A DNA stretch of 64,000 nt from Octopus vulgaris (Eukaryota). A program made the translations under genes and the position numbers. The stretch spans positions 42,098,001-42,162,000 of the forward strand of contig OX597834.1 in NCBI GenBank assembly GCA_951406725.2, given 5' to 3'. Shown here piece after piece: positions 251 through 45,230 of this stretch; the stretch's first letter is position 1, and each line of letters opens with the position of its first letter. The notes below the pieces were generated by a model. That model was given only the letters and a program-made list of their open reading frames with translations, was not told where the DNA came from and ran no database searches.

Positions 251-430
251 ATCACGTGATCACATGATTGACTAGACCATCAGATGTTGCTACACATCGC
301 TGGTCACAATGCGTTCGCATTGTTTTAGCCTTCGTACGACGCCACCCCACTGGCTAAGCGAGCAGGCCAATATATATATATATATATGTATACCTACATA
401 TATGTATATATATGTATACCTATATATATG

Positions 431-465
<35 letters not shown>

Positions 466-578
466 ATAAAAGCGCCAGCGGGGTGGCGTCATTTGAAGGC
501 TAAAACAATGTGAAGCGCATTGTGACCAGCGATGTGTAGCAACATCTGATAGCTTGGTCGGTCGCGGTGATCACGGTG
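251..578. mobile_element. Two inverted 3-prime fragments of SINE family C flanking a TA/TG microsatellite
   Basis: 251-370 and 476-578 are reverse complements and match the tail of the element at 12908-13172. Confidence 0.8.
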
Positions 579-711
579 GTGTGTGTGTGTGTGTGTGTGC
601 GTGTGCGTGCGCGTGTGTCGCTGCAAACCGTTTGACAAGTGCCAACGCAGAAACTCTCGAGTCTTGAGTCATTTTGACACTCCTGCTCAATATCAATAAA
701 ACACACACACA

Positions 712-764
<53 letters not shown>

Positions 765-893
765 GTGGGACTCTTATAGAGTTACTGTTTACAAAATTCA
801 CTCACTGAGCTTTAATGAAAACAGATCAACACCCGACGTATGCCTCACTTGTTATTCTGGTTTCATCATTACTCGTACGGTTACCACCTCGTC

Positions 894-2281
894 GCTGATA
901 ATCGCCTGCATATACAGGTTGCATTCCCTTGTCGTAAAGACTACCAAAAGAATATGGCTGCTCGGTCGGTAATCTAAAGCACGTTAACATTGCAAAGTAG
1001 GTCTGTGGTACAGCAAAAAGTAAATGGCAAGATGTTTTTAATGCGACCGCTTTGTGTCTTTTATATAAACAGCTTCAATATAAACTTCTTACTGCTGTTG
1101 TACAAAACTAACGTACCCAGCAAAGGGGCACCCGCAGAAGCAGACTCGCGTTCCTCAACACATAAAATTGATGGGGGCTAACAAGAGATTTACCCCCCCC
1201 CCCCCTAGACAACAATGAGTGGCCGGTATTAGTATGACTATTATGACGACAAAATAAGTACTACCGTTTCTGCAGTTTCTCAAGTTGATTATGACTCTAT
1301 CCTCGAAGTATTTCTGTTTTTAATCTTTTACTTGTTTCAATTACTTGACTGCAGCCATGCTGGAGCACCGCTTTGAAGGTGCTGGGGTCGATTTGTTCGA
1401 CTAAAACCCCTTCCAGGCGCTGCTCCAGCATGGCTGCAGTCAAATAACTGAAAGAATAAAAGGTTAAAAAATAGACATACGTCGAGGATAGAGTCATAAT
1501 CAACTTGAGAGACCGCAGAAATGGTAGTACTTATTTTGTAATAATAGTAATACTAATACCGGCCGCTCATTGTTGTCTAGGGGGGTAAAGCTCTTGTTAG
1601 CCCCCATCAATTTTATGTGTTCAGGAACGCGAGTCTGCTTCTGCGGGTGCCTCTTTGCTGGGTACGTTAGTTTAGTACAACAGATGTAAGAAGTTTACAT
1701 AGGCGTAGGAGTGGCTGTGTGGTAAGTAGCTTGGTTCCGGGTTCAGTCCCACTGCGTGGCACCTTGAGCAAGTGTCTTCTACTATTCCACGGGCCGACCA
1801 AAGCCTTGTGAGTGAATTTGGTAGACAGAAACTGAAAGAAGCCCGGTGTATATATGTATATATATATATATGTATGTGTATGTGTGTATGTTTGTGTGTC
1901 TGTGTTTGTCGCCCCAACATCGCTTGACAACCGATGCTGGTGTTTTTGAGTCCCCGTAAGTTAGCGGTTCGACAAAAGAGAACGCTAGAATAAGTACTAG
2001 GCTTACAAAGAATAAGTCCTGGGGTCGATTTGCTCGCCTGAAGGCAGTGCTCCAGCATGGCCAAAGTCACATGACTGAAACAAGTAAAAGAGTAAAAGAG
2101 TATTTAAACTGTTGATATAAAAAGACCCGAAACGGTGGCGCTAAAAATATCTTACCATTTTCTGTTTGTTGTACTATAGACCTACTTTGCTGGGTCAATG
2201 TACTCTAGATCATCGGCCGAGTAGGTTTTGGTAGTTTTTGCAACTAAGGAATGCAACTGTTATATGCACGTAATTATCAGC
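894..2281. repeat. Long imperfect inverted repeat (foldback), arms about 480 bp; right arm interrupted by a SINE
   Basis: 894-1375 aligns with the reverse complement of 1411-1697 plus 2101-2281. Confidence 0.95.
1701..2100 (+). mobile_element. tRNA-derived SINE family A, near full length, with internal microsatellite
   Basis: A-box-like TGGCTGTGTGG, B-box-like GGTTCAGTCCC and an (AGTAAAAG)n tail; many copies in the window. Confidence 0.9.
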
Positions 2282-2516
2282 ATAACGGTGTAAGTAAATA
2301 TGTTTTGTAATTTTAATCTTGTTGTGAAATGAAACTGTTTTTGGTGAATATGTTGATTAATTAATAAATTAATCTGTTTTTATAATTTGATAGAAAGGTT
2401 TGACATCTTCTGATATTCTATTTAATATATTCATTGAAGAAATATCTTTTCAAAATTTTTTGTATCAAACCTGTGCATCTTGGATAAATAAGAGGTTGGA
2501 ATATCCTCATTGTGAC

Positions 2517-2598
<82 letters not shown>

Positions 2599-3109
2599 TG
2601 TATGTATGTATGTACGTACGTACGTACGTACGTATGTATGTATGTATGTATATATATTCCAAGAAAGTTAGAGGTTGTGAATCCAACCCACTAAAGGATA
2701 ATATCTATCCAATATATTGCTGGTAGAATACCCAGTTATTAATACACAAGTATTTTGATTGCATTGCTATTACATTACCAAGTGTACTAAATGGGTGAAG
2801 GTAAAGAGATATTTTACCATTAATTTATAGAGCAAATAAGAAAATGGAGGAGAACAATAGGTGGTTCATCAACTTTTAGACATTATATTATGTTAACTTA
2901 TTTATTTATTTACTAAACTGATAATTACAATAATATACATACATATAACATATCATTCTTTACATATAAGATATAAGATATAAAATACAGTAATATATAA
3001 GGATGAAAGATTAATATGTTATATGTATGTATGTACATTTTGATTGATTCGGAGTACATCGTTTCCGCACCTAGGATTATATATATATATGCATATATAT
3101 ATATATATA

Positions 3110-3890
3110 TATATACGACGGGCTTCTTTCAGTTTCTGCCTGTGAAATCCACTCACAAGGCTTTGGTTGGCTCGAGGCTATAGTATGTTCTTTTTTACTC
3201 TAGGCACAAGGCCCCAAAATTTTGGGGGAGGGGGACAGTCGATTAGATCGATCCAAGTACGCAACTGGTACTTAATTTATCGACCCCGGAAGGATGAAAG
3301 GCAAAGTCGACCTCGACGGAATTTGAACTCAGAACATAAAGACAGACGAAATACCGCTAAGCATTTCACCCTGTCTGCTAACGTCTCCTATTTCTTTATT
3401 GCCCACTAGGGGCTAATCATAGAGGGGACAAACAAGAACAGACAAACGGACTAAGTCGATTACATCGACCCCAGTGCATAACTGGTACTTAATTTATCGA
3501 CCCCGAAAGCATCAAAGGCAAAGTCGACCTCGGCGGAATTTGAACTCAGAACGTAGCGGCAGACGAAATACCTATTTCTTTATTACCCACAAGGGGCTAA
3601 ACATAGAGGGGACAAACAAGGACAGACATAAGTATTAAGTCGATTACATCGACCCCAGTGCGTAACTGGTACTTAATTTATCGACCCCGAAAGGATGAAA
3701 GGCAAAGTCGACCTCGGCGGAATTTGAACTCAGAACGTAGCAGCAGACGAAATACCGCTAAGCATTTCGCCCGGCGTGCTAACGATTCTGCCAGCTCGCC
3801 CACCTTTGGCTCGAAGCTATAGCAGAAAACACTTGCTCAAGATGTCACGCAGTGGAACTGAACCCGGAATCATGTGTTTGGGAAGTAAGC
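3110..3890 (-). mobile_element. SINE A fragment containing a tandem trimer of SINE family B (about 3190-3805)
   Basis: The trimer is flanked by the duplication TTGGCTCGA(G/A)GCTATAG and holds three copies of the ATCGACCCCG...AAAGGCAAAGTCGACCTC core. Confidence 0.85.
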
Positions 3891-3955
3891 TCGACGGCGA
3901 AATTTCGAACTCATTTTAGCATTCTGTGCAAAAAATTACGATATTCCTGCTGTTT

Positions 3956-4358
3956 ACTCTTTTCTCTTTTACTTGTTTCAGTCATTTGACTGCGGCCATG
4001 CTGGAGCACCGCCTTTAGTCGAGCAACTCGACCCCGGGACTTATTCTTTGTAAGCCCAGTACTTATTCTATCGGTTTTTTTGCCGAACCGCTAAGTGACG
4101 GGGACGTAAACACACCAGCATCGGTTGTCAAGCAATGCTAGGGGGACAAACACAGACACACAAACACACACATATACATATATATACATATATACGACAG
4201 GCTTCTTTCAGTTTCCATCTACCAAATCCACTCACAAGGCATTGGTCGGCCCGAGGCTATAGCAGAAGACACTTGCCAAAGGTGCCACGCAGTGGGACTG
4301 AACCCGGAACCATGTTGTTGGTTAGCAAGCTACTTACCACACAGCCACTCCTGCGCCT
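3956..4358 (-). mobile_element. SINE family A, full length
   Basis: Reverse complement of the 1701-2100 and 29515-29927 copies. Confidence 0.9.
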
Positions 4359-4919
4359 ATGCTAGTTATTATTTATTGGTAACTCCCGCTATATTGGCAC
4401 CGCAGTAATTAATAATCTCGGCGGCAATCTTTACGACATTATATAAGTTCTTTGTGCATCTTACAGTCTTGTTTACAATTTACGATGTCGCTCATGACGC
4501 CTGAAGTTCGGCAGCTTTGAAGGACGTGGGAAAAGAACCTTCATGCGTCAAAGTCCGATTAAACACATATAAATATAACTTCCTGATATATACTTATTAT
4601 TATAAAAAGCAGGTCAATTAGGGTAAGGTTATTCAGTGCAAGGAGCAGTGCATGACGGCCTTGAAATAAAATAAGAGAGCCAGAGGGAGAATGAAAAAAA
4701 CCACAACAGCAGCTGTTGTCTAATGATTTAATGACCAGAAGAAACACCTCCGCCGTGAGATCTGTGTCTGCTTGGCTTTAAAACGTTGACCACATATATG
4801 TGCGCTCGCGTGTGTATTTGTTTGTGTGTATGTATGTTTGTATATATATACGTAACATATGGTACAATTATAAACAGGGCAAATTTAAGCCATTTCTCTG
4901 CAGACTGAAAAAAAAAAAA

Positions 4920-4989
4920 AGAATGATGAAGAACCTTAATCGATTTTCGAACCTTATTGAGTTCTCATCAGAGGCGTCCACATCATTCT
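4920..4989 (-). ncRNA. Minimal type I hammerhead ribozyme
   Basis: Minus strand reads AGAATGATG-TGGACGCCT-CTGATGA-GAAC-TCAATAAG-GTTC-GAAA-ATCGAT-TA-AGGTTCTT-CATCATTCT. All core nucleotides are present and stems I, II and III pair. Confidence 0.8.
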
Positions 4990-5316
4990 GACAGTCTCCA
5001 GAGAAGCAAGCAGCCAAACTGTTTATATACTCAACAGTGCGGCAAGGTTAGGGTTTAACAGTGATGTGATCGCAAGCCACCCGTACAACTATTACTGTTT
5101 TGAAAGCGGTAACAAGAATATATAATCAGTAAGTAATTAAGTTGCTTTGATATTGCTTTCGAAGTCCAGCAAGTTCGGGGGAAAGAGTAAGTCGATTACA
5201 TCAACCCCAGTGCTCAACTAGTACTTATTTAATCTACCCGGAAAGGAAGTAAGGCAAAGTCAACCTCGGCGAGAATTTGAACTCAACGTAAAGACACGTT
5301 TGATATAGCAGTTCAT

Positions 5317-5667
5317 GGAGGCGCAATGGCCCAGTGGTTAGGGCAGCGGACTCGCGGTCGTAGGATCACGGTTTCGATTCCCAGACCGGGCGTTGTGAGT
5401 GTCTCCGGCAGGGATGGTGGTGATCCCTGCTGTACTCTTTTACCACAACTTTCTCTCACTCTTACTTCCTGTTTCTGTTGTACCTGTATTTCAAAGGGGC
5501 CGGCCTTGTCACTCTCTGTGTCACGCTGAATATCCCCGAGAACTACGTTAAGGGTACACGTGTCTGTGGAGTGCTAAGCCACTTACACGTTAATTTCACG
5601 AGCAGGCTGTTCCGTTGATCGGATCAACCGGAACCCTCGTCGTCGTAATCGACGGAGAGCTTCCACC
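5317..5667 (+). mobile_element. tRNA-derived SINE family C (tail type 1)
   Basis: Head GGAGGCGCAATGGCCCAGTGGTTAGGGCAGCGG...TTTCGATTCCC; closely similar to 47825-48195. Confidence 0.88.
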
Positions 5668-6416
5668 ATAGCAGTTCATAGGATAAAACCTCGGTTGTGG
5701 ACATGTTTAAACTATGACAGAACTGTGTCTTGAATTTAGCGCGTGGCAAAAGCCTTTAGCTCGAAGTTTTTTTCTAGCCGTATTTTTGCTAGCTTTTTGT
5801 ATGAACTGTTGCAATTTCGACAGTTTCTTTTCTCTTTTCACTCAATGCATGTGTCATGTATCTTGGGGCGATCATCTTCCTGCGATTTGATATGTGAGAG
5901 ATGGAGAGATTAGCCGTTTGGTATAACTCATGCTGAGACATTAATGATTAATGATTGATGAAAGTGATAAACTAGCAAGAGGAGAAGAGATCACGCTTTC
6001 TCGACTCTAACAATAAGGTGGTGCATAAAAACGTGCGTCTTTAGTTTTCAAACTTCTGTTTTTTTCCTCTGCAAATCGAAAATATTCGAAAGAAAAAACG
6101 ACAAAAAAGAAACAAAACATGAAGCATATTTATTTTATGAAGATATTGATAGCATTCATATCGGATTATTCCCGTATTATTGATATCTGGTTAGATATTT
6201 GAACCCGCAAATAGTTACATATCTAGATAATGACGTAGAAAGAACACTTTTAACTAAGATTATACAATGAAGACTGATGTAAACTTTGAACACAATCACA
6301 CAGCACTATGGAAACTAATGCATTTCCGTTTTCTGTGGTTTCAGGTTCAGTCCCACTGCGTGAAACCTTGGGTAAGTGCCTTCTTTTATTGCTTCTGTTC
6401 GACCAGTGCCTTATAT

Positions 6417-6794
6417 ATTTGACTGCGGCCATTCTCGAGCACCGCCTTTAGTCGAGCAAATCGACCGCGGGACTTATTCTTTGTAAGCCCAGTACTTATT
6501 CTATCGGTCTCTTTTTGCCGAACCGCTAAGTGACGGGGAAGTAAACAGACCAGCATCGGTGTCAAGCAATGCTAGGGGGACAAACACAGACACACAAACA
6601 TATACACACACATACATATATATACATATATACGACAGGCTTCTTTCAGTTTCCGTCTACCAAATTCACTCACAAGGCATTGGTCGGCCCGGGGCTATAG
6701 CAGAAGGCACTTGCCCAAGATGCCACACAGTGGGACTGAACCCGGAACCATGAGGTTGGTTAGCAAGCTACTTACCACACAGCCACTCCTGCGC

Positions 6795-17914: not shown

Positions 17915-18284
17915 CATACACACACACAAACACACATATATGTATGTATGTATATTGGAATCGTAAAATCACTTGAAAACCATTAAAAGCACATAAATTC
18001 AAGTTACTGTGCAACAAATAAGAATAAAATCATATAAAATCATATTAAAATATGTATTGTAAATGTTAAGATACGCACCATAAAATAGTGTAGCTTAGTG
18101 AACAAATTCATGAAATCAGCTGTGTTACCTTATTTATCGCTCTTTCGGAGCTCATATTGCACTGTAGTTCCAATATCTACCGTTAGACGTCGGTGTCACT
18201 CGTGATTCCCGCGATTATTTTGAATTCAAATTTGGCTACGTTTGTTTCTCGGCTGCTTTCTCATTCTCATTCAATTTTGCCCCC

Positions 18285-18809
18285 ATGGCTCCTAAGAAAA
18301 TCCGTACTGAAAGTGCTAAGCGTCATGCTATAATAATGCTGGAAGATAAACTGGATGTGATAAAACGCCATGAAAAAGGTGAAAAAGGGATAGCAATTGC
18401 ACGATCTTTTGCGATGAGTCGAACAACTGAATCAACGATTGTATATAATAAGGACAAGATTTTAGCACATAGCAAAACTGTCATCAATAAGAGAATAGAG
18501 AAGTACCCCAAGGAGAAGGTTTTACTTATCTTAGATAATGCTCCTGGCCACCCGCAATGTACACTAAGACACAGACAAGTTGTATTCGTAAATTTAGATT
18601 ACCTTTTTTTTTACTGTGCTGTATTAAAAAATAAAAATTATTTGTTTCTAGGCTTAAAATAGGGTCTTTATTAACCATGCATTATTGAAAATGCATTCAT
18701 AAATAAAGTACAGAACTGGGAATGGCTATTATCCGTTTAGCCTAGAGACAAGTAAATTCGACTTAAGTTGTGTTTGCTGGAATCAATTAACGACGTAAGG
18801 TGAGGTATG

Positions 18810-27359: not shown

Positions 27360-28620
27360 AAGGATGGTCAACTCTACAAGAGAAATGACAAATATTTAGA
27401 CGCATACATAGATACAATTTCAAAATTTCCCCTAAATATCTACAGATGCAAACAAAAACCTTCGTGAAGAAGAGAAGGAAGCCTTGCTAACACTGAAGGA
27501 GGACAACTCAATCATCCTAAAAGAAGCCGATAAGTGGGGTGGAGCGATATTAATCACGGGCAAGGACTATTATAAAGATAGAATATTGGAAATTTTAACA
27601 AACGAAACTTACGGCAAGGAAGAATCAAGACACCTAGAATAATCAATAATGAATGAAATCAGAACATTAATCAATGAATACCAAGATTCCTTCACAGACA
27701 AGGAGAAAGATTATATATGCAACTCTGTAATCGAAGAGAGCAATTTCTACAGACTGCCCCAAAGCCACAAAAACTCCGAAATACAAAGTGCCATAAATAG
27801 GTAGAAGAATTAATACATAAAAATACTAAGACCTGCTGACCTCAAACTAAGACCGATAGTAGCTGGACCTCAAGCACCAACACACCAACTAAGTCATTTT
27901 TTAGATACACTCCTAAAACCATTGTGTCCTTTGATACCCAGTTATATACGGAATGGCATACATTTCATCCAGCACACCCCACCCACTGTCCCAAGTTTTG
28001 ATGTCACCAATCTTTATACCAATATACCTCACGCCTTAGGTCTAGAAACAGTCAAACACTGGGTAGAGAAACATAGAGGACGGACAAATGAACGCTTCAA
28101 GACTGACTTCATCACCAAGGCCACATGCTTGGTACTAGAAGAAAATACCTTTAGATTCGATAATAAAACATCGACAGATAAAGGGCACGGCTATGGGGAC
28201 GTAATTTGCACCCTCATATGCAAACTTAGTCACAGGATACTTGGAAGAAAGACTTTACGAGGAAGTAGAGAACACTTTTGATCGGGAGTACAAGAAATAT
28301 ATCGTTAAAAAGTGGAAATGCTTTCTTGATGACTGCTTTATCTTTTCAGGCAAATGAAATGAAATATGTTGGTTATCCCAGGACAATGTGTGCTAACAAA
28401 CAGAATCATGTGTTCATGAATTTTTCCTTAAGTGTCCGTAGTAGGGTGATGCTCAGTTTCATTGCCCTTTTAGTTCCCTCATTAATTAATCCTAAGGGGT
28501 ATTTCAACTTTGTGAGGAGGCCTTTGAGCTCGTTCAGTTGGACTAAAGTTGGGTTGAGTATTTTGGGGTCAGTCACTATAGCACAGATTTGTCTTGCCAT
28601 GCTGTATTGGCTAACGTTTC
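27360..28620 (+). mobile_element. Decayed Penelope-like retroelement RT with an inverted distal segment (about 28380-28620 on minus)
   Basis: Motifs ILKEADK-WGG, LKLRPIVAG, SFDVTNLYTNIPH and KGTAMGT; minus-strand ARQICAIVTDP...KYPLGLINEG. Confidence 0.85.
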
Positions 28621-34857: not shown

Positions 34858-35348
34858 TCAGTCAAGCACATCCATGAAGGTTTGCATAAGATACGGTGAA
34901 TGTTTAATTCCCATCGAATACTTCGGGGTAGAATTGCCAAAAGGTTTCGACAGCTGAACATTATAAGTTCCTGGTCCAGGGTTATCCATTTTATATTTGG
35001 GTATCGCCGTTCGACTCCTCAGAGAAAATAACGGTGGTTGCTTGTGTGAAGAATGTAACGGTACGGAGCCATACTTCGCAGGCCCCGGTGTCTTGGCGAA
35101 GTCGTAAGCATAACTGTTGTAATTCAGTCTTTTATTAATGCTGTAAGCAGGTACATTTGAAATATTTATGGGTTGCTCGCCCAGGATTCCTGGCAAAGAA
35201 TATGCACAAGGAGAAGGAACCGTATCTTTACTCGATTTCGGACGAGAAGTAAAACTGAATGCCGGAGCGGTACGTTCTCTCAAGACACGCACTTTCGGAC
35301 CGCAATATGTACCCGGAGCTGGGTTATCCAGGATACCTTCCCATAAAT
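34858..35348 (-). CDS. ODF3: ODF3/CIMAP1-like protein, last coding exon (spliced product 243 aa)
   Basis: TTTTTTCAG acceptor at 35351-35349. Repeated motifs PAPGTY, PSPCAY, TPGPAKY and NPGPGTY, and C-terminal PKYSMGIKHS, are typical of SHIPPO-repeat proteins. Stop TGA at 34860-34858. Confidence 0.93.
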
Positions 35349-36379
35349 CTGAAAAAAGAAAAAGATACAGCATTGAAAAGAAGAAATGTATATATAACCA
35401 GGTAGCTTAATGCGATATATAAAGAGTTCCTTTATTTGGCAGATAAAAGGCGATATCTGTTAATATCAGATTAATATCCTTCCGCTGGTCTTAAAAACAT
35501 ACATGGGAAACATTAAAATATAAAAATTTAAAATGACCAGCATCTTTGAGTCCTACATACATCGAGTCCTTATCTTTTCAGGGTGACTCATAGACCTGAA
35601 CAAGGATCGCTGCATGATTTGACTGTTCAATGCTGCAGAAATTTTGCTATGTTTTTTTTTTACAGAAGCCTAGGTCAAATGGTGACGAGACAGATATTCA
35701 CACATCATTCTTTAATAAATGTAGAACCATCCAGAACAATTGGTGATCTCACAGTAGCAATTTATTTTGGTAGAGACGAAACCATTGACAATTTTATTTC
35801 TCGTTCTGTCCCTTGGCACAAATCTTACCATTTAAAATTCAACAAAGTAGGTGCAAGCAGTTAACGAAGGGATAGTGCAAAGTAAAGCAGAACCAATGCA
35901 ATTAAAAGCCAAAAACTCAGAAAGCGTAAAGCATTGGACATGCAAAAGTTTATTCTGTGAGTAAACGAATAAGGATAGGGTTTTCGATGAAGGTTCGGCA
36001 TTTGATACAGACAAAAAATATCCAAGATATAATTATATATAATTATAGAGATGTTGAACGAGGAAGTTTTAGGGGAATTCCAGGTTCTGACTGAGAGAGT
36101 TTGAGGAGATTTAATGGAGGTTAAATACTATCCACCACTATAAGGTCCGGTCCTTGGTGTGGTGGCTTGCATGCCTCAGTGACTCTGAGAGATATGACAG
36201 CAGAGCACAAGCGCCTTGTAAGGCCTCCGTACTAGACAGGTGATAGGACAGAGGCCGAACTAATGTCGTTCCTCTTCACAGAGATAAAAAATGGCTTTGC
36301 GCAACACCAACATCGCTATCTAGAAAAATATAAAGTTAGAGAAGCATCGATGACAGTTCAAAATTAATAAGACCTGGGA

Positions 36380-44953: not shown

Positions 44954-45070
44954 TATATATATATGGGATGAATAGATCTTTATATTAATGATGCATGCAG
45001 CAAGACAGGGAATCGGACACCAGTACCAAATAGTTCCAAATGTTGTTAAAAGTTAACAGCATCAAATCCC

Positions 45071-45230
45071 AGAAATGGACCACCGTTTCGAATCTTTCCT
45101 CATCAGATTCCTCCTCTCCCAGTTGACCCAGCCGGGGTTGATGAAGTCCTAGCTTGTGACCTAGCAAACCACTGGTCAGCTCTCTTATCCAAAGCCACCG
45201 AGTGGTCTTGCTCTGCAGCTTCAGCGATGG
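45071..45230 (-). mobile_element. Probable HERO (R2-like) LINE 3-prime end
   Basis: TRWLWIR ORF end followed by ATCAACCCCGGCTGGGTC...TCTGATG...CGAAAC, as recalled for HERO 3-prime UTRs. Confidence 0.5.

Follow-up and report, generated by a model that had tools for sequence, protein, structure and literature searches.

The hammerhead motif on the minus strand near one end of our window, a stretch of 64,000 nt of Octopus vulgaris DNA (contig OX597834.1; positions below are counted from its first letter), is very probably a 5′-truncated copy of an old, dispersed 304-nt repeat of the non-LTR retrozyme type, likely inserted by a Penelope-like element (PLE) and probably inert at this site. The first-pass annotation had left two interpretations side by side, a solo PLE or retrozyme relic and a compact self-cleaving RNA unit of about 90 nt. 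Our comparisons favor the relic, as the window holds a 5′-truncated copy, running from unit position 205 to 83, of a tandem hammerhead family with a 304-nt unit.

The hammerhead motif and its predicted fold

The sequence elements that make up the proposed ribozyme were all confirmed on the minus strand. The type I hammerhead core (CUGAUGA, stem II, GAAA, a palindromic stem III region and a UUA triplet; 4937–4971) starts with CTGATGA at 4971–4965 and continues through stem II (GAAC/GTTC, 5 bp with a U·G closing pair and the loop CAATAA) to the GAAA box at 4948–4945 and the palindromic stem III ATCGAT at 4944–4939, which lies within the 8-nt palindrome AATCGATT; the UUA triplet is present and puts the predicted cut between 4937 and 4936. 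By motif and folding, stem I (4920–4989) consists of GCCT/AGGT (4975–4972 with 4936–4933) plus AGAATGATG/CATCATTCT (4989–4981 with 4928–4920). The TATA-like motif TATATAAA is found at 5029–5022 and the run of 13 T residues at 4920–4908, the latter looped out of the long stem in the predicted fold.

A loose core pattern occurs in the 64-kb window at chance level (4 found versus 3.3 expected), and the interval originally delimited by the annotation folds no better than its shuffles (z = −1.3). The 121-nt region 4890–5010 reaches z = −4.6 versus shuffles because the stem goes on past the T-run, where 5005–4992 pairs with 4907–4894 to form an outer stem (4894–5005) that is seen in the folding and in the subfamily comparison described below. 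Further out, the TATA-like motif takes part in the pairing (5019–5029), as 5027–5019 is complementary to 4877–4869, which closes a predicted hairpin of ~150 nt. This folding score, together with 52 exact genomic occurrences of the 35-nt core versus 0 in a reversed control, indicates that the full motif is not a product of chance. A check against Rfam (3500–6500; 4880–5040) found no hammerhead at E ≤ 5 or E ≤ 10, and identification as a hammerhead therefore depends on the motif together with its stems and the compensation seen in them; snoRNA and miRNA matches from the same database scored far under their gathering thresholds and were dismissed.

As a monomer, the window copy is predicted to mispair its core, as the core-open fold lies 3.7 kcal/mol above a minimum in which core bases are paired, and the unpaired probability is 0.03 at three core positions. 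The 8-nt palindrome is computed to form an 8-bp intermolecular duplex of −6.1 kcal/mol. For hammerheads of this kind, weak activity of the monomer and cleavage as a dimer are reported in the available text of PMC4209133 and PMC7229834.

A dispersed family with a 304-nt unit

The motif does not stand alone, as the annotation had proposed. Window positions 5036–4844 (minus strand) are a truncated copy of the dispersed 304-nt unit and cover unit positions 205–304 and 1–83, counted from the predicted cut, at 91% identity to the consensus; that there is no second copy nearby holds true within the 64-kb window. A DNA search of the octopus's own genome returned 1798 first-look candidates, the 40 of them that were scored giving at least 47 matches, the window itself included. 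From the exact 35-mer being found in 4 of 79 copies sampled without regard to the core we estimate ~890 hammerhead-bearing copies (95% range 360–3200), and core bases are retained in 35 of the 79 unselected hammerheads. The copy-number and flank analysis suggested for the presumed solo element thus does uncover a family, to which the description as solo does not apply.

The unit is 304 nt long, has a GC content of 38%, is non-coding and occurs in head-to-tail dimers. Core-to-core spacings range from 268 to 317 nt with a mode of 304 (36 spacings, four loci being counted twice), and one locus, L040, carries three cores. Copies longer than one unit run into the previous unit, and at least 60 nt are held twice in 45 of 171 unique copies. 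Apart from these head-to-tail dimers the dispersed copies are mostly sub-unit fragments, and no long arrays were seen in searches that could not favor arrays. Three exact-pattern samples yielded 136 loci, or 125 once 11 duplicates were removed, with a mean identity to the consensus of 90.0% and a best of 96.4%; the ~10% divergence of the copies looks neutral. At seven of 43 exact-core loci (L032, L034, L035, L038, L039, L046 and L220) a common foreign upstream flank is joined 6 nt before the core, and these are secondary copies in which a truncated copy is carried inside a larger, younger repeat or duplication.

The window copy amounts to ~0.6 unit, although weak likeness may extend to ~5052, and its 5′ flank (5030–5175) is single-copy. 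Downstream, the element extends about 65 nt past the T13 run as far as 4844, where the 3′ tail of the family gives way to a TA/CA microsatellite that is the likely insertion target (tail and microsatellite, 4810–4893); a target-site duplication was sought at this copy and none was found. Over the 100 nt that precede the cut the window copy matches the consensus at 98% identity, and as a whole it is as diverged as its siblings (91% versus the family mean of 90%). Both the TATA-like motif and the T-run are inherited from the family and lie inside the ~150-nt hairpin, and the 13 T residues are a local expansion of a run that measures 4–10 nt in 67 other copies. Core, stems and palindrome are all retained in 5 of 79 copies sampled irrespective of the core, so the intactness of the window copy is no sign of selection. 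Since it has one ribozyme and the upstream part of the unit is missing (two thirds, the conserved octamer included), the window copy could not release unit RNA and would at most slowly nick a passing transcript.

An older sister subfamily, traced from loose ends of RNA reads, has the same unit and is also tandem (1006 candidates, 40 scored). The two subfamily consensuses are 82% identical. They share 33 of the 35 core positions, the two changes making up one compensated stem II pair, and are identical at 37 of 38 positions in the TATA arm, at 14 of 16 in the octamer region and at 16 of 29 in the spacer that intervenes. The predicted hairpin has 52 pairs, of which 38 are the same in both consensuses and 14 differ: two by two-sided changes, six by one-sided changes that still pair, and six that are broken or gapped, three of these last owing to a one-base register shift. 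One outer-stem pair is compensated in the sister subfamily from C–G to U–A, and the region past the T-run shows one two-sided and several one-sided changes, a comparison that involves two lineages only and is not a statistical covariation test. Together, the compensation past the T-run and the complementarity of the TATA region to the 3′ tail suggest that the selected RNA was longer than a transcript from TATA to oligo-U. Folded as a circle, the unit has a computed energy of −82.6 kcal/mol versus −62.8 ± 5.0 kcal/mol for 60 shuffles.

The octamer ATGCAAAT, at unit positions 165–172 and 47 nt upstream of the TATA-like motif, is present in both subfamilies and is carried, for example, by L107, L227 and L229. 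We take it to be a putative promoter element of the snRNA type.

Insertion, tandem copying and RNA

Copies of the unit share a 3′ end that is set off from the ribozyme cut. Of 125 copies, 95 have it at 55–97 nt beyond the predicted cut and 5 no more than 10 nt from the cut; among 168 unique copies, 83 run from it into TA/CA/TG repeats, versus 22% at random positions. The 5′ ends are variable and spread across the unit and into the previous unit. This polarity points to target-primed reverse transcription of hammerhead-sense RNA, primed at the TA-rich stretch of the unit and not at the ribozyme cut. Microsatellite targeting, partial tandems and inverted 5′ arms are described for PLEs in the available text of 10.1101/2021.04.23.441226; an inverted arm was found at the 5′ side of none of the 168 loci searched, and an inverted piece at the 3′ side of two. 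Two features of the 5′ ends were set aside. An excess just downstream of the cut in a 55-locus sample was absent from two other samples (pooled, 18/37 versus 4/19, p = 0.08), and part of the piling up at TA-rich unit positions comes from alignments that run on into microsatellites.

The dimers carry information on the template. At the non-CpG A/G marker of unit position 262, 27 dimers are informative (a G/C pair was left out), and 21 of them carry the same base in both units (Fisher p = 0.006); neither the upstream nor the downstream unit is biased. Identity between units is 85.2% within a locus versus 84.1% between loci (p = 0.002). Both results argue that the two units of a dimer were deposited together, from a single type of template. 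Such concordance fits more-than-unit copying of a circle, which is proposed in the portions available of PMC4209133 and PMC7229834, and is equally compatible with uniform linear tandems.

These observations can be accommodated in a model in which an ancestral master tandem would have been transcribed through more than one unit. Its hammerheads, whose stem III would be weak alone, would have worked mostly in pairs joined by the 8-nt palindrome, and their cleavage would have set free unit-length RNA that probably became circular. The enzyme of a PLE would then have nicked (TA)n DNA and started synthesis at the TA-rich stretch of the unit, and the resulting copies may have been anything between a fraction of a unit and more than two units long.

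By class, the mobilizing enzyme is likely that of a PLE. Intact 775-aa frames with reverse transcriptase and GIY-YIG domains are many in this genome (6010 candidates, 150 scored). The linker of one PLE family is of the CX4CxxC type, which the literature text available describes for Neptune/Nematis; the family bears its own hammerhead-like motif about 170 nt ahead of its (TA)n end; a young copy of this family lies directly downstream of a unit dimer at L065. When four PLE proteins from two families were compared by tblastn with 145 unit loci, six loci matched and none of the matches abutted the 5′ end. The sole upstream match on the same strand, at L077, is 1.2 kb away and was dismissed as a partner, unrelated repeats and microsatellites lying between. 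An autonomous partner sharing the unit was not found in the two young PLE families examined, and a 39-nt likeness to the end of a young PLE, which is AT-rich and in opposite orientation, is not a partner link.

Further elements lie in the window and elsewhere in the genome. A degenerate fragment of a PLE-type reverse transcriptase lies at window positions 27814–28281 (plus strand), and among its relatives are young families whose 775-aa reverse transcriptase and GIY-YIG frames are intact. At L169 a hammerhead-like motif of a young PLE family is located ~500 nt past the end of the ORF at 4648; its core reads CCGAAGA and not CUGAUGA, its palindromic loop is 4 nt long, and its stem I has 5 bp. 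The window itself holds a second, unrelated hammerhead-like motif at 45070–45125 (minus strand; CTGATGA at 45106, GAAA at 45089); TATAAA precedes it by about 130 nt, and (TA)n is entered about 110 nt downstream. This motif probably marks the 3′ end of a further PLE-type family. Two other features of the window are a reading frame with sperm-tail PG-rich (SHIPPO) repeats at 34858–35406 (minus strand; Pfam E 1e-14) and, at 18168–18662 (plus strand), a remnant that matches CENP-B N-terminal and, weakly, DDE domains and is likely a fragment of a DNA transposon.

Raw RNA reads of a relative matched one unit at 121 in 12.9 million and 143 in 12.0 million, figures that represent about 6% of each run and a library type that may lose circles. 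The matching reads are mixed, mostly less than 95% alike, in both directions, and 79–83% of them run into unlike flanks; they look like read-through of scattered copies without abundant unit RNA. The family is present in reads or contigs under six organism labels. Run X2 gave a 264-nt contig on the unit with a depth of 205, and one variant, at a depth of ~205–245, covers roughly one unit; in run X6 the contig depths sum to 100,000–700,000 over the TATA and core parts of the unit. For both runs, which were compared with L107 and L063, the status as RNA is guessed and contig depth is not expression, so these figures are no more than hints. No circle-closing piece is among the X2 and X6 contigs listed. 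It is conceivable, if doubtful, that the 304-nt unit is a self-promoting retrozyme whose octamer and TATA would drive transcription of a short, U-run-ended hammerhead RNA and of read-through multimers closing into circles, with descendants that some related species would still produce in large amounts.

Rival readings and relation to known retrozymes

The end structure of the copies is also what would be seen if the unit were the pseudo-LTR of an old autonomous PLE whose 3′ end is tandemly repeated, and the copies its short 5′-truncated ends. PLEs, too, end at a fixed 3′ position, are truncated at the 5′ side, target microsatellites and have a small palindromic stem III; retrozymes and pseudo-LTRs are reported as related in the available text of 10.64898/2026.07.22.740005, and few copies as short as these would be expected to reach an ORF. 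However, copies longer than one unit enter the previous unit, and with two PLE families as queries no PLE ORF appeared at the 5′ end of any of the 145 unit loci, which leaves this reading unlikely.

We regard it as highly improbable that the window copy is a functional gene for a compact self-cleaving RNA of ~90 nt, with a TATA promoter and an oligo-U terminator. TATA, intact core and T-run are plausibly spaced, and the ribozyme is among the better preserved ones, with 5 of 79 unselected copies as intact; all three elements, however, are inherited from the family, the conserved octamer that goes with them elsewhere has been lost here, the compensated hairpin passes the T-run and takes in the TATA motif, and the core of the monomer is predicted to be mispaired. 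Hundreds of decayed copies are present in place of a single or a few conserved loci, and among hundreds of copies dozens would be intact by chance, this one having been noticed for its intactness. Most remote of all is the proposal that the tandems are local DNA duplications made after insertion and that an ordinary short interspersed repeat carries the hammerhead along as a passenger. Identity within loci is indeed slightly higher than between loci, but the excess is one point, where later duplication would give a much higher within-locus identity, and a passenger would not be expected to keep 33 of 35 core positions and compensated stems while the neighboring spacer is identical at 16 of 29. 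A truncated retrozyme-type copy is thus our preferred account of the window motif.

At the level of sequence the unit bears the marks of metazoan non-LTR retrozymes as given in the available text of PMC7229834 (Cervera and de la Pena 2020). The retrozymes of coral, mussel and axolotl described there likewise have a type I hammerhead and are ~300-nt, low-GC, self-paired, non-coding dimers; the mollusc case in that text is the mussel, and PLEs are likewise present in the same genome. Unlike them, the octopus family is old, consists mostly of dispersed sub-unit fragments with no long arrays seen, has a lineage-specific sequence and is known here from sequence and from low numbers of apparent read-through reads. 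Vertebrate non-LTR retrozymes, as far as the text of Li, Clavereau and Pollet (10.64898/2026.07.22.740005) is available, are likewise scattered solo monomers and dimers with a unit near 300 nt. An origin from PLEs and mobilization by them are proposed in that survey, and 1 of 9 genomic dimers cleaved when tested; its available text contains no mollusc, and the pseudo-LTR homology it reports was not found for the octopus unit.

The minimal hammerheads of PLE pseudo-LTRs, as characterized in the available portions of PMC4209133 (Cervera and de la Pena 2014), have in common with ours a small palindromic helix III and a G10.1–C11.1 pair, and they are likewise predicted to be active as dimers and mostly occur as single truncated motifs. 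The octopus motif differs from them in its stems of canonical size with no extra base between 9 and 10.1, in its very long stem I extension and in having no attached ORF. Hammerhead repeats of ~300 nt in newt satellite 2 and in schistosomes are reported to have internal promoters, for polymerase II of the snRNA type in the newt and for polymerase III in schistosomes (PMC2220036 and PMC7229834, in the text available). The conserved octamer and TATA-like motif of the octopus unit are a putative counterpart of such promoters; the spacer in which a proximal element would be expected, however, is the least conserved part of the octopus unit.

The suggestion that this might be an undescribed cephalopod family stands, as we found no publication on it. 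Literature on retrozymes, hammerheads and PLEs in octopus and other cephalopods, survey supplements aside, did not mention the family, and the paper on the giant squid genome gives a count of 235 Rfam hammerhead loci but, in its available text, no analysis of them. The window locus carries little weight, being one decayed copy among hundreds, and with the family a known class, the retrozymes, gains a cephalopod-type example. Its two subfamilies provide natural compensation evidence that the selected RNA was a ~150-nt hairpin that takes in both the T-run and the TATA motif, and the subfamily markers shared within dimers are what copying a single repeated or circular template more than once would give. 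While a circle and a uniform linear tandem are not separated by these data, the hairpin and the dimer markers both bear on how animal retrozymes are copied.
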